64,000 nt of DNA from a virus. Each line of letters opens with the position of its first letter. Positions within the stretch are counted from its first letter, which is position 1. The stretch covers positions 13,546 through 77,545 of IMG/VR virus record IMGVR_UViG_3300035188_000399; one strand, given 5' to 3'. Under the pieces are notes generated by a model that did no database searches, was not told where the DNA came from, and saw only the letters and a program-made list of their open reading frames with translations. Made by a program: the position numbers and the translations under genes. Positions 14,471 to 60,901 of the stretch are shown piece by piece.

Positions 14471-17400
14471 TTATCCTATTCCATAGAAACCCCAATCATC
14501 ATCAAACTTAGTTGGATCGGGAATTTCACTCATAACATCTTTTTTAGTTAAGATGTCTTTTTCTGTTAATATTTTACCACCGACAACTGATTTGCCTGCT
14601 ACAGGTATTAATCCTTTGTCAATAGCTTCGTTTAAATATTGATCATATAATTCTTTAGGGAAACCTCTTGCTAACATTTCATCTAATGTAACTTTAACAG
14701 GATTTTTATCTAATACATTAGCGTAAAGTTTTCTTATACCCTTCCGGGCCTCCAACATATCGGCTGCATTGGCGAAAAACGCATCGTGAATGGTGCTTGT
14801 GGCAATCTTATTGTCTCGTCCCCATAGGTGGAAATTTTTGACCAATGTTGCGTCATTGGAGTGGTTTCCGTTGACTGCATAAGCTGTGCGTGCTTTTGTG
14901 GCATCTGCGATATCATTTATTTTCCCATCAGCATTTACTACTTGTTCCCACCAAGTAGCTTCGGTCTTTTGTTGTATTTGGACTAAGTTATTAATCCAAT
15001 TACCATCTTTATCTTTATATGCTAATCGTTCTTCAAAAGATTGTGTGAAATTTTGTTCGATAATCTTACCATCAAAATTTACCCATGGGACATTAGTCCA
15101 TGACTTAGGAAGCTTATTAGCATAAAATATTTCAAAACCTTTAGATATATTTAATTTTTCAATAGGTTCTAATCTAAATACCTTAAATCCAGTACGTCTG
15201 TCATTAGGTGCTTTTACACCATATATTAAATCAGCTAATGTTCCATCTGGTTTCCAGCCATCAAATCGTTTTAAAAATTTCTCTGATAGCGCTTCACCAG
15301 CTTTTAGTCCTAGTATTTCACTTATCCTGTCAGGGAGGACATAACCTTTTTTACGAACACCTAAAACTGCGGTAGTTCCTATTGATTTCCAATCTAAAGC
15401 AGCTTGAGAAGGTTTGGCATTAGTCAGGTAATCTTCAGCCAATCTGCCGAAAAATTTTGTAAAGTCTTTTAAAATAGGTACTTGTTCACTAAGATGCTCA
15501 GACATTAATTTAGCAATAGCTTGAAAATCTCTTGGCGTAACAACCATATCATAGGTATGTGTCATCTTTTCCACTAAGTCTTTAGTGGCAGGATCAAGGA
15601 AATATAACTGTTCCATAATCTCGTCACCAGGATCTAGGCCTTTATTAAATATGTCTTTTACATTTTCTCTTAATTGTTTTAGTTGCGCAGTAGTTTCAGG
15701 ATCAAACTTTTCATATCTTGCTGCACGTGCTGATATTTCATTTAATACTTTGTCTCTATCACTAGCTCTAACAACTAAAGTAGGTGCAAATGTTTCAGGC
15801 TTTTTAGCTACATTAACTAATTCTTCTTGTAACGCTGAATTAAGATCTGAAATTGTCTTTTCTGTATCTGTAGTAGCAGGTGTAAATCCTGCATCTTCCA
15901 AAGCCATTTCAGCTGCTTGTTTATTTGTCTTTAGATTATAAACACTAGCTTCATCTTTAATGATAGTATCTTCACCAAATCTATTTGACTTTAAAATACG
16001 TTTTTGAGCTTCTAATAATTTGAAAGCTCTAGAATCAGAAGGGACATTTAAAGATTTTAAATGCTCATCCAAAAACTCACCGAGTTCTTCTACAACTTGC
16101 ATAGCAATATATTTCTTAGTATCGCCTTTTGAGCGCTGTTCAAATTTAGCTTTATTTTCAGCTATTTTCTCTTTAGAAAATTTCTCGCCAGTCTTATGAT
16201 CGAATGTTTTATATGTAGCACGTTCTTTTCGTTCATCTGTTAGTTCAATATCAGCGGTATGTAACCATTTAAATGTATCTTTTAACTCTGCAGGAGATAA
16301 CTTACCTTTCATAGCTTTAGCAATTAAATCACCTTGAGCTTTAATAATTTCGTCTGGTGTACCTACATAATTAGGGTCTGTTTTGTTTTCAACACCTAAT
16401 ACACGTAATAAGCCAGCTGAGTCTTGTCTTTCAGATAACAAACCTTCTGTCACTTTTACTTCAGGCGGTTTTGCAGGTTTCTTTTCCAATACTTTTGCAA
16501 GCTTACCTTCAACATTAAGAATTCCAGTTCTTTCTCCAGCTCCATAAAACGTAACCATATTTTGAGCTTTTGCAGCTTTACGTAAATCCTTTTCATTGAG
16601 ACCTAATCTTTCATTTAATACTTTAAATCGTGGATCATTAAATGTTGCTGCAGCAATTTCATCATATAGACGTCTTTTCTGATTTGTAGGAACAACATTA
16701 GATAGCGATGCAAGCTGTTTATTCTTAGTAGTTAAAGCAATAATCTGTGCACCAGATGACGAAGCATCTTGTTCAAGAGCAAGAGCAGTTTTATAGGAAT
16801 TCATTCTATTAGTTGAAGCTAAATTTTTCAAATCTGACTCAGACAAAGTGTAATGCAAAGGACTACTTCCAACATCTGATTTAGTTTTTATTTCAAATGT
16901 TTTAGATGTTTTAGCTGCATATTTCAATCTATCTACGCCTCTCGAATGCCCAACTACTAATGCTGCTTTTTGATCAGGTTCAGTAAAATCTGCACCAATG
17001 TCAAATTCAACTCGATAACCGTTATTTTCTAACTTAGCTTTTATATCGTTATAAAACTTATCAGCTAACGGATTACCTTTTATAAACTTAGGATTACCTT
17101 TTACGATAACAGCTAGTGGTTTTTCATTTAGATAATTATCTATCTTAGCCGCTTCCATAGCAAACCTAAAGAACTTACCTAACTCTTCGCCTTCAACTAA
17201 TTGCACCATATCAGACTCTAATATAGCGCGAATATCTCCTGGTTTACCACGTAACATTTTATTACCAATATCTACCATCTCTGGCCACAATTTATCAGCA
17301 ATCTTTTGTCTGCCTGTAAATGACAATGAATTATATCTGCCTTCAAATACATCATTCAGACCGCCCATGAACGCGCCTATTTGATCTCTAAAGTTTCTAT

Positions 17401-59361: not shown

Positions 59362-60901
59362 ACGGAAGTGTCATTGTATTACGTTTAACAATCTTACGTC
59401 TTTGTTTAGAATCTTTAATTCTGTTCCAGAACACTGGTGCTGCAATAGAACCAATATCTGACCATTGTTGTTTGTAGGCTTTTATTTGCGCTACTAGTTG
59501 ATTTCTAACATCTGATTTAGGCTCAGAAGCAGTAATCTTTTTCTTTAGTTTAATTAATCCATCTATAAAATCTTCACATTGTAAGATTAAATCTGCAGGC
59601 ATCCGTGCTATATCATGTGCTATTTTATTCCATACATGTTCTGCAACGTATGCATATAAGTCTCCAGGCAGCTCTAATGGAACTAAATTAACATATGGTG
59701 CTGTTACTTCATCTCGTGTTAAAGCAGATAAATGTTGTGAGCCATTAGTTGAGCCGTCAATAAAACATTCAACATGTGATTCATACTCTAAATATCTTGG
59801 ACCAAGCTTTAATGAATTCTTCAATTCAATACATGCTGACAAGAATTGCCACGGCTTATCTCCTGCCATCCAGCCTTGATTTACTTTTGGACTCTCTGCA
59901 TACGATAATAAAATCTCTTGATTGTCTAATACCCATTGATATCTATCTTTAAGATTTATCTTATCTGTCTTAGCGCCATCTTCACGCCCTGAAGAACCTG
60001 CCCAATTGCTGGCAATCGATACACATAACCAGAAGAAACCTTCTTCTCCAATAGCTTTCTTATCTTGGCGCATTAATAAGCCTTTAGCTATATCACTAGA
60101 CTGTTCATGTAGATATGCTGTTGTAGGATACTTACGACCTCTGAAATCAAGATAATACATATGATAAAATATGGTGTCCATAAATTTATCTGCTATTGAC
60201 AGAATAGCTTTTGTTTCTCGAAGCTTAGTGGCCTTAGCTTGTGGATTCTGTTGTTCCCATATATCGCTGAAAGCATCAGTATGATTATTTAATGCCCATT
60301 TAGCTACTGTGTAAACTTCTTTATTTATCTGCCAACCTGTAGATAAACTTTTATTTATGGCATCAAATACTATTGGATGCGTATCAGGTGTTAGGATACC
60401 GGGAACATCTTTATTTCCTGTCTTAACTAATACTTGTCCTGTGGGATGTTTAAATTCAGTGTAAGGTTCATATGGTATTAGTGAAGGCAATTTACCTTTT
60501 GCACCTTCACGACTTACTGTTTCCCATAGCGCTTGTATTGCAGCATCATCTAGCACTTCTACAATATATGTAGCATGTCCATTTCCAGCTGACCCAAGAA
60601 TAGATTTGAGCATGCCAAGTTCTTCAAATGAATAAAGAATGAAAGCGCCTGTTTTAGCCGCAACAGATGAGTCTTTCTTCATTCCTCTTCGGACTGAATG
60701 TCCGATGATACTTATCACTTCTACCAGCAAGATTTGTTTATTTACTGCACCTCTTTTAGGGCGTGTGTATAAATATAGATTAGATATTATTATATCTAGT
60801 ATACTTTCTAATTCAATTTCTTTAAGAAACTTAAGAGGACTCTGAGGAGCAATTTCTAATTGCATTCTACGTGTTAATGATTGCTTCAATCTATTTCGCA
60901 T
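59362..60901 (-). CDS. T7-family RNA polymerase, exon 1
   Basis: DFRGRKY, KPWQFL, DGSTNGSQH (motif A), VNL, DLY and RKIVKRNTMTLP (motif B). Confidence 0.93.

Follow-up and report, generated by a model that had tools for sequence, protein, structure and literature searches.

The 64,000-nucleotide (nt) stretch analyzed here, referred to below as the window, comprises bases 13546-77545 of the 77,545-bp virus record IMGVR_UViG_3300035188_000399 from an uncultured freshwater phage, and it raises the question of what two divergent single-subunit RNA polymerases (RNAPs) may do in one siphovirus-like genome. A first-pass annotation had described a MuF-RNAP fusion and a second, T7-like RNAP (here termed RNAP2) in this genome, and both were indeed found, with Pfam RNA_pol matches at either locus. 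The reading that we favour, at a probability of roughly 0.6, is a relay between two T7-type enzymes of ancient divergence, each apparently with a promoter class of its own, so that infection may proceed largely without the host polymerase. The fusion gene and the features of its product are the following:

14471..20107, minus strand: MuF-RNAP fusion gene encoding 1878 amino acids (aa; protein P0001), with Pfam Phage_Mu_F and RNA_pol, directly 3' of the portal gene
19358..19672, minus strand: MuF (SPP1 gp7-like) core domain, aa 146-250, PF04233 at 52.2 bits (cut-off 29.6)
14474..18415, minus strand: predicted complete T7-like RNAP module, ~aa 565-1878, with N-terminal domain, thumb, palm and fingers (structure model and family profile)
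16742..16768, minus strand: motif A of the fusion, DASSSGAQI, aa 1114-1122, the Asp corresponding to T7 D537
16535..16582, minus strand: motif B of the fusion, RKAAKAQNMVTFYGAG, aa 1176-1191, corresponding to T7 R627, K631, Y639 and G640
14777..14791, minus strand: motif C of the fusion, IHDAF, aa 1773-1777, the Asp corresponding to T7 D812
16817..17125, minus strand: insertion 1 in the fusion RNAP, aa 995-1097 (alignment with seven relatives)
15788..16477, minus strand: insertion 2 in the fusion RNAP, aa 1211-1440 (same alignment)

The fusion gene is located in the head module between the portal and scaffold genes, and its product is composed of a MuF part (~aa 1-350), a helical linker (350-565) and a full T7-type RNAP (565-1878). 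The MuF match spans positions 4-111 of the 112 positions of the PF04233 profile and is the only one that a Pfam scan of the whole genome detected; RNA_pol was matched in the same genome-wide scan at the fusion locus (39.7 bits, cut-off 22) and at the RNAP2 locus only. The motifs by which the two enzymes had been told apart in the first-pass annotation, DASSSGAQI and IHDAF as compared to DGSTNGSQH and IHDSY, are present exactly in the fusion (...EQDASSSGAQI..., ...TIHDAFF...) and in RNAP2 (...IDGSTNGSQH..., ...TIHDSYG...), respectively. Insertion 1 (103 aa) was absent from all seven aligned relatives, including those with 92-94% identity, and insertion 2 (230 aa) was shared by two of the seven. 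No Pfam match was obtained for either insertion, and an ESM Atlas look-up of insertion 1 returned nothing but RNAP context. In the structure model of a short form of the fusion (see below), the site of insertion 1 falls in the loop between helix 628-649 and strand 658-665 and that of insertion 2 in the loop following helix 744-759; because both are loops in the model, the insertions need not disable the fused enzyme. The length of the fusion gene varies among relatives (up to ~2300 aa), which suggests insertion hot spots, and in EBPR siphovirus 1 (L004 25771-31144) the gene is broken by an HNH endonuclease gene (gp47, gp48 and gp49 in this order).

The fusion is widespread among related phages. 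More than 350 protein clusters (90% identity) combine PF04233 with PF00940, typically at ~1540 aa and on 60-90 kb contigs, many of them complete genomes, and the lineage is thus abundant in the environment. At 50% identity, 164 matching clusters were found among 1.84 billion representative proteins, almost all being fragments or full-length versions of the MuF-RNAP architecture; judged from this clustering, MuF-RNAP is a closed family. Each of the eight near-complete relatives encodes both enzymes. EBPR siphovirus 1 and the Naomviridae roseophages DSS3_VP1 and DSS3_PM1 represent the lineage in culture, and DSS3_VP1 possesses a 1463-aa gp108 annotated as 'head morphogenesis' after its portal gene and a separate 732-aa gp080 annotated as 'RNA polymerase'. 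The pelagiphage Kolga carries an unfused MuF protein (633 aa) and one RNAP.

Judged from their residues, both enzymes look catalytically competent. Sixteen landmarks of T7 RNAP were compared (D421, R423, R425, Y427, D537, S541, G542, R627, K631, M635, Y639, G640, H784, D787, H811 and D812): in an alignment to T7 RNAP the fused enzyme was identical at all 16 and RNAP2 at 15, S541 being replaced by Asn as throughout the RNAP2 clade. Across an alignment of 30 sequences of the fusion family, reaching down to 19% identity, the motif A Asp and the motif B Lys were invariant, and the motif B Tyr and Gly as well as the motif C Asp were conserved in at least 90%. Since single-sequence phmmer with the fusion found no RNAP in the PDB, a family profile was needed; this profile matched T7 RNAP with an E-value of 1.4e-25 in three collinear blocks, mitochondrial RNAPs at ~1e-18 and N4 RNAPII at 1e-6, and gave no match to the N4 virion RNAP (vRNAP) in the PDB at E-values up to 1. 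A ColabFold (AF2) model was computed for a 94%-identical short form (residues 346-1545; pLDDT 82, pTM 0.78). Its residues 220-1199 aligned to T7 RNAP 29-882 with a VIA Z of 30.1 (623 residues aligned, root-mean-square deviation (rmsd) 7.7) and its core with a Z of 29.3 (500 aligned, rmsd 3.4). Mitochondrial RNAPs scored on par with T7 (Z 28-30), whereas the N4 mini-vRNAP, with Z 15-21, remained below the T7 and mitochondrial enzymes (27-30). The fused module is predicted by the model to comprise the whole T7-like RNAP fold, including the N-terminal promoter-binding domain.

The divergence of the two RNAPs noted in the first-pass annotation was confirmed by a maximum-likelihood tree of 710 columns, which is unrooted, contains long branches that were flagged, and was built without N4 or mitochondrial sequences. 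All fused RNAPs were placed on one side of a branch with 100/100 support, and RNAP2, the Kolga RNAP and the Autographiviridae RNAPs on the other, RNAP2 not being sister to the fused clade. The fused RNAPs thus placed form a separate clade, apparently an ancient one, that does not look N4-like. An origin of the fused RNAP as a recent duplicate of RNAP2 is not supported by this unrooted tree with its long branches. Moreover, the path lengths from the window to DSS3_VP1 are alike in both RNAP clades (1.87 as compared to 1.73), as expected if the enzyme pair was inherited together.

The second enzyme had been described as a 739-aa T7-like RNAP at 57931-60901. The nature of the enzyme and its size were correct; it is, however, not encoded by a single open reading frame (ORF), and 739 aa are reached only after removal of an intron. 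The interval consists of three ORFs of 538, 151 and 200 aa, and the locus is organized as follows:

60930..60971, minus strand: terminator-like hairpin of 19 bp, GC-rich, with a T-run of variable length, 30 nt 5' of the RNAP2 start codon
59362..60901, minus strand: RNAP2 exon 1, codons 1-513 and the first base of a Tyr codon, phmmer match to T7 RNAP at E 6e-27
58611..59361, minus strand: group I intron of 751 nt inside the motif B tyrosine codon of RNAP2, Rfam RF00028
58672..59127, minus strand: HNH homing-endonuclease ORF of 151 aa within the intron, Pfam HNH_3 at 76.7 bits
57931..58610, minus strand: RNAP2 exon 2, starting with bases 2 and 3 of the Tyr codon and ending at the stop, Pfam RNA_pol, with IHDSY at 58111-58125

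Exon 1 and exon 2 match Pfam RNA_pol with 123.6 and 83.4 bits, respectively (cut-off 22). The intron matched RF00028 with 58.7 bits (gathering threshold 50, E 5e-14) in a search of 1.3 kb, and was not reported when Rfam was run over the whole window in either gathering or E-value mode. Its P1 helix sets the 5' splice site after CCGU with a U.G pair, and a G precedes the 3' site. Exon joining yields ...MTLP-Y-GG... and a spliced RNAP2 of 739 aa; the junction is fixed because four intron-less homologues in related genomes read KRNTMTLPYGGSSYGLGEQQ (...MTLPYGG...) across it. Furthermore, the stretch is represented in eight freshwater RNA libraries from three studies, of which four runs (X1-X4) of two studies were analyzed. 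RNA contigs of X1 and X2, two runs of one freshwater sample, join 58610 to 59362 and omit exactly the 751 nt; the X1 contig comprises 606 nt with 0 mismatches and 199 nt on its shorter side, whereas the shorter side of the X2 contig has merely 30 nt. An unspliced contig across the intron was obtained from X4, which belongs to a different study. The evidence for splicing of the RNAP2 intron in nature is good yet short of proof, as a strain lacking the intron but identical in its flanks could yield a contig of the spliced form. The hairpin ahead of RNAP2 is bridged by RNA contigs and depth drops past it in X4; it may set the RNAP2 dose, as either an attenuating terminator or a site of RNA processing. 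A DNA-level search of the RNAP2 region against phage records returned trivial matches only. In the relative G005 (L084), the RNAP2 gene is also interrupted near motif B, apparently at another position, and, taken with the broken fusion gene of EBPR siphovirus 1, this suggests that mobile introns have repeatedly targeted both polymerase genes.

Two promoter-like intergenic motif classes, named class A and class B, divide the window in the way that the relay would predict. They are listed here in the direction of transcription:

63456..63474, minus strand: class A variant with 3 mismatches, head of the early region, ~110 nt 5' of the first class B motif
63353..63379, minus strand: class B motif 1, start of the early region
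62171..62197, minus strand: class B motif 2, 5' of three small ORFs and RNAP2
54320..54338, minus strand: class A, first exact copy, 5' of the gene for the gp2.5-like single-stranded DNA-binding protein (SSB) and the replication module
40484..40510, minus strand: class B motif 3, past the replication module and ahead of the next class A copy
39819..39837, minus strand: class A copy
34901..35075, minus strand: class A tandem pair (starts 35075 and 34919), at the head of the operon for packaging, portal and MuF-RNAP
13979..14111, minus strand: class A tandem pair (starts 14111 and 13997), at the head of the operon for scaffold, capsid and tail

Class A, CCCGTTAAATTAACCCTAA, occurs in six exact copies (54338, 39837, 35075, 34919, 14111 and 13997) and class B, a bipartite motif of 27 nt reading GCGGAAA-N4-GGTATCTTATATGA, in three (63366, 62184 and 40497); the six exact class A copies, the one variant and the three class B copies are all intergenic and all on the coding strand. 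Transcription would thus meet, at the start, the class A variant, class B, small ORFs, class B, small ORFs, the hairpin, RNAP2 and further small ORFs, in the middle class A ahead of the SSB and replication genes, then class B, then class A, and at the end one class A pair ahead of terminase, portal and fusion and the other ahead of scaffold, capsid and tail genes. From the first class B site through the RNAP2 region no exact class A copy was found, and RNAP2 therefore sits in a zone without exact class A that is headed by class B. A consensus scan of the early region for sigma-70-like sites showed no enrichment (23 found as compared to 26 expected). Hairpins precede some of the class B copies in the window and none in the relatives G003 or G004, and these hairpins look like upstream terminators. 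A third conserved element, TCCCCCT-N10/11-CCCTTAG, was observed on the minus strand at 13950-14095, 35010-35060 and 63400-63455 of the window and also in G003; it follows the first copy of each class A pair as well as the class A variant at the genome start. The heptamer ATCTGTT, matching the T7 RNAP class II pause signal, lies 3' of the same class A variant.

Comparison of the relatives revealed a pattern that links the motif classes to the enzymes. All eight near-complete relatives contain the class B 14-mer, which lies immediately 5' of RNAP2 in each of them except G005, for which the mid-genome copy alone was matched (at most one mismatch); an equivalent of the mid-genome class B copy is also found in G001, G004, G005 and G006, and the order of class A variant and then class B also in G003, G006, G007 and G008. 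Across relatives the class B consensus is GCGSAAA-N4-GGTATCTTATATGA, with GCGS-AAA and GGTATCT conserved; TTG in the upstream half is not conserved, unlike in a sigma-70 -35 element. Seven of the eight relatives carry the class A core; it is missing from G004, where no class A substitute was found. In the RNAP2 segment aligned to the T7 specificity loop, G000, G001, G003 and G005 hardly differ and share an insertion of 12-13 residues, and only in the RNAP2 of G004 is this loop replaced by a shorter, unrelated one. By contrast, the equivalent loop segment of the fused enzyme is conserved in all genomes compared, G004 included. Because the loss of class A in G004 coincides with the replacement of the RNAP2 loop, class A is linked to RNAP2, and this pattern leaves class B to the fused enzyme or to a conserved host factor. 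There appears to be a separate promoter class for each enzyme.

A comparable layout was found in DSS3_VP1. Here, a class B-like repeat of 32 nt with the core GGCATCTATAATGA (10/14 identical to class B) is found in two copies where the early region begins, just past the terminator of the tail module and 5' of the RNAP gene, and twelve class A-like sites of the GGGTGCGTTAAAGAGGGG type, sharing CGTTAAA with class A, are located elsewhere; from the class B-like sites through the RNAP gene, no class A-like site was detected at up to 3 mismatches. Kolga served as negative control, and neither class A nor class B was present in the 28.6 kb examined, which included the region 5' of its RNAP gene.

The freshwater RNA contigs are in line with a transcriptional role of class A. 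Contig depth was 123-246 over 52672-54005 in all four runs and 46-132 over 54006-54672, as compared to ~10-60 in neighbouring bins, and these raised bins correspond to the two genes directly 3' of the class A copy at 54338. In X2 and X3, depth was 137-190 downstream of this copy and 10-16 upstream, and the step just downstream amounts to 5-10-fold, which speaks for genuine transcription with a strong start at this site. Depth was also 1.5-3-fold higher from the class B copy at 62184 to the hairpin at 60971-60930, and lower over RNAP2. The contig ends at 54317 and 62181 were considered as transcription starts and discarded, as they coincide with repeats or strain variants.

Following this, we propose that the MuF-RNAP fusion would be made late, with its MuF domain docking at the portal as SPP1 gp7-type proteins do, and that a few copies would be packaged and exit the capsid along with the DNA. 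The fused enzyme would then recognize class B promoters at the leading end of the genome and transcribe the small early genes and, by read-through of the hairpin, RNAP2. The RNAP2 pre-mRNA would be completed by group I self-splicing within the motif B tyrosine codon, a step that is for the most part documented by the junction and contigs described above. In the last step, RNAP2 would recognize the class A promoters, as the covariation and the RNA depth suggest, and transcribe the replication, packaging, head (fusion gene included) and tail operons, and the host RNAP may be dispensable for this phage. The first-pass annotation had put forward such a succession, from a packaged RNAP to the early genes and the second RNAP, which then drives the replication and structural operons; the partition of the motifs, the loop covariation and the layout of DSS3_VP1 support it in part, and its packaging, ejection and class B reader are what we infer. 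For the wider claim that a large freshwater and marine siphovirus lineage of global distribution, the cultured Naomviridae included, is fully independent of host RNAP by means of a MuF-carried T7-type RNAP reading double-stranded class B, followed by a second T7-type RNAP with its own promoter class, the chances appear about even.

Several points weigh against the relay. The assignment of class B to the fused enzyme rests on position and on the one discordant genome G004, and a strongly conserved promoter read by the host, or a regulator binding site, would give the same distribution of class B. Assembled RNA contigs give no transcript ends and no start site is claimed, the contig of the spliced form could stem from the intron-less strain mentioned above, and a strong terminator-like hairpin lies directly ahead of RNAP2. 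That a siphovirus tail lets a protein of 212 kDa pass on ejection is an assumption, virion proteomics for any member of the family were not found in the literature, and the Naomviridae paper (PMC8323127) never mentions an RNA polymerase. The main rival is a scheme in the manner of T7 or Xp10, in which the host RNAP reads class B and RNAP2 does the rest, the packaged fused enzyme having another job such as transcription-driven genome entry, replication priming or transcription of a few sites only. That class B stays invariant in phages with 30-45% difference between their proteins would suit a conserved host machinery, the class B-like core of DSS3_VP1 holds a perfect TATAAT hexamer, which also counts against the relay, and the related siphovirus Kolga works with one RNAP and an unfused MuF protein. 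We nevertheless consider this scheme unlikely, as the conserved class B positions (GCGS-AAA and GGYATCT) fall where sigma-70 reads little and the -35 TTG is not among them, the sigma-70 scan was without enrichment, and the core is common to a freshwater phage with 36% GC, a relative with 46% GC and a roseophage, whose hosts are presumably different. Moreover, relatives have strongly conserved the specificity loop of the fused enzyme, which is what an enzyme with a fixed promoter should show.

That the fusion is not delivered at all, and has either a late intracellular role (e.g., packaging-coupled transcription) or the role of a structural head protein with a relic polymerase, would agree with the location of its gene in a late operon headed by class A. 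This seems improbable in view of catalytic residues conserved across a family that reaches 19% identity and of the mere 164 clusters at 50% identity, nearly all of MuF-RNAP architecture; in addition, the fusion is the sole MuF protein of the genome, and the partners of MuF domains are generally read as delivered effectors (PMC5512222). Even less can be said for a swapped assignment, with the fused enzyme reading class A and RNAP2 reading class B. The class A variant upstream of the first class B motif at the leading end of the genome would suit it, whereas the loss of class A coincides with replacement of the loop of RNAP2 and not of the fused enzyme, class A heads the most strongly expressed replication genes, and a swap would provide no temporal order, with RNAP2 driving early genes only; we regard it as very improbable.

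The proposed relay resembles the strategy of N4, in that a capsid-carried single-subunit RNAP would transcribe early genes including that of a second T7-like RNAP, and both N4 enzymes belong to the T7-like superfamily (PMC4496689). The first-pass annotation had spoken of N4-like logic built from different parts, which holds as an analogy of strategy only, because the fused enzyme appears to resemble T7 and mitochondrial RNAPs more than the N4 vRNAP (structural match to N4 at Z 21 as compared to Z 30 for T7 RNAP). The phage of the window is a siphovirus, whereas N4 is a podovirus; the carrier is a MuF domain here and the N- and C-terminal domains of gp50 in N4. N4 gp50 has ~3500 aa with N4-specific flanking domains, whereas the fusion has 1878 aa and Pfam matches to MuF and RNA_pol only. 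N4 has hairpin promoters, whereas class B is bipartite and appears to lack a conserved hairpin. Furthermore, RNAP2 is a single polypeptide that apparently serves late operons too, whereas N4 leaves its late operons to the host RNAP. To our knowledge, virion-delivered single-subunit RNAPs are known from N4-like phages only, and the other virion RNAPs that we know of, those of the jumbo phages phiKZ and AR9, of crAss-like phages and of P23-45, are two-barrel enzymes. Thermus phage P23-45 (PMC10770324) is likewise a long-tailed siphovirus with a giant tape measure protein, and one of its virion structural proteins carries a fused RNAP by which the gene of a second phage RNAP is transcribed, as is proposed here; its RNAPs, however, are two-barrel enzymes related to cellular RNAPs and the fusion is to the tape measure, whereas the phage of the window has two T7-type enzymes and a MuF head protein as carrier.

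The closest cultured relatives, DSS3_VP1 and DSS3_PM1 (PMC8323127), show the same gene order, the same enzyme pair and analogous class A- and B-like motifs; they differ in being marine, in a GC content of 47.5%, in their distance in sequence (32% identity for the fusion and 34% for RNAP2) and in having deoxyuridine (dU) for dT in their DNA. RNA polymerase was also unmentioned in two further Naomviridae-related papers. With Autographiviridae the phage shares, in RNAP2, a conventional T7-like RNAP with all motifs and a T7-like replication module alongside; Autographiviridae and Kolga differ by having one RNAP each, and in Kolga by the unfused MuF protein. T7-like phages use the host RNAP for their early genes. 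MuF polymorphic toxins and polyvalent proteins (PMC5576092, PMC5512222) likewise combine an N-terminal MuF domain with C-terminal enzymatic cargo presumed to be delivered from the capsid, the cargo being a toxin or small enzyme there and a 1300-aa RNAP here. Neither of these papers lists RNAP as MuF cargo, Iyer et al. 2017 (PMC5512222) confined virion RNAP modules to N4-like phages, and no published description of a MuF-RNAP fusion was found in a body of literature that included few subscription journals. The promoter classes with the loop covariation, the counterpart motifs in DSS3_VP1 and the metatranscriptome evidence are new here. If the relay holds, MuF would be a general vehicle able to deliver a whole transcription enzyme, the phages would have a second, independently evolved single-subunit virion RNAP system beside N4, and the pairing of a MuF-anchored T7-type enzyme with another of T7 type would solve the same problem in a new way, offering two compact, orthogonal polymerase-promoter pairs. 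The relay may also help to explain gene expression from modified templates in the dU-containing Naomviridae, and it is testable at the bench because the lineage has cultured members, DSS3_VP1 and DSS3_PM1, on Ruegeria pomeroyi.

The remaining genes of the window support the first-pass assignment to a siphovirus-like genome, as portal, scaffold, major head, major tail, tape measure and tail-fibre proteins were recognized, and the replication module is T7-like, with family A DNA polymerase, primase-helicase, 5'-3' exonuclease, ribonucleotide reductase, ligase and gp2.5-like SSB. Those with relevance for the operons discussed above are the following:

20117..21706, minus strand: portal protein gene, PHROG 145 at E 1e-55, homologues with PF13264, immediately 5' of the fusion gene
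13264-13902, minus strand: scaffold (PHROG/Pfam annotation)
12019-13242, minus strand: major head protein (PHROG/Pfam annotation)
10135-10797, minus strand: major tail protein (PHROG/Pfam annotation)
genome 10712-22390 (window up to 8845), minus strand: tape measure protein of 3892 aa, Pfam TMP_3 at the N-terminus
tail-fibre protein of 2153 aa (PHROG/Pfam annotation)
53799-54293, minus strand: gp2.5-like SSB
51174-53066, minus strand: family A DNA polymerase
47439-49055, minus strand: Toprim-DnaB primase-helicase

In Pfam, TMP_3 was the sole match of the tape measure protein and no polymerase domain was detected in it; its size suggests a very long tail. The co-orientation of all genes was likewise upheld: every substantial ORF in the ORF list is on the minus strand, and the three plus-strand ORFs of at least 150 aa each lie within a larger minus-strand gene. 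The contig ends overlap (genome 1-1968 and 75665-77543, 85-100% identity), probably as a wrap-around of the contig via a second strain, and once this overlap is counted the true genome length is ~76 kb. RNA contigs of X1-X3 carry a 455-nt deletion variant (62195 joined to 62651; window 62196-62650) that matches the left-end copy. Clues to the host are conflicting: the homologues of P0042 and P0299 are labelled 'Flavobacterium sp.' (NCBI or UniRef) and the GC content is 36%, and a Shine-Dalgarno-like motif precedes 65% of the ORFs as compared to 12% of random positions, a frequency that is unusual for Bacteroidota. No tRNA genes were found in the genome.

Three homing-endonuclease-type genes are present in the window, one GIY-YIG and two HNH. 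The SegE-type GIY-YIG endonuclease gene (49048-49566, minus strand) is free-standing between the 5'-3' exonuclease and primase-helicase genes. The large terminase is apparently split (31804-34111, minus strand) into an ATPase piece (33569-34111, PHROG 2) and a C-terminal piece (31804-32352, PHROG 10250), separated by an HNH_3/HTH endonuclease ORF (32647-33324, minus strand); Rfam detected no group I intron in this region, and the terminase of DSS3_VP1 is likewise annotated as two pieces flanking an endonuclease gene. Two adjacent tail-protein genes of 707 and 699 aa (24831-29054, minus strand; PHROG 5939 from the scan of the first) are probably paralogous, and both contain an exact repeat of 16-19 nt, TGGGGCGCACAACTAG(AAG), twice each.

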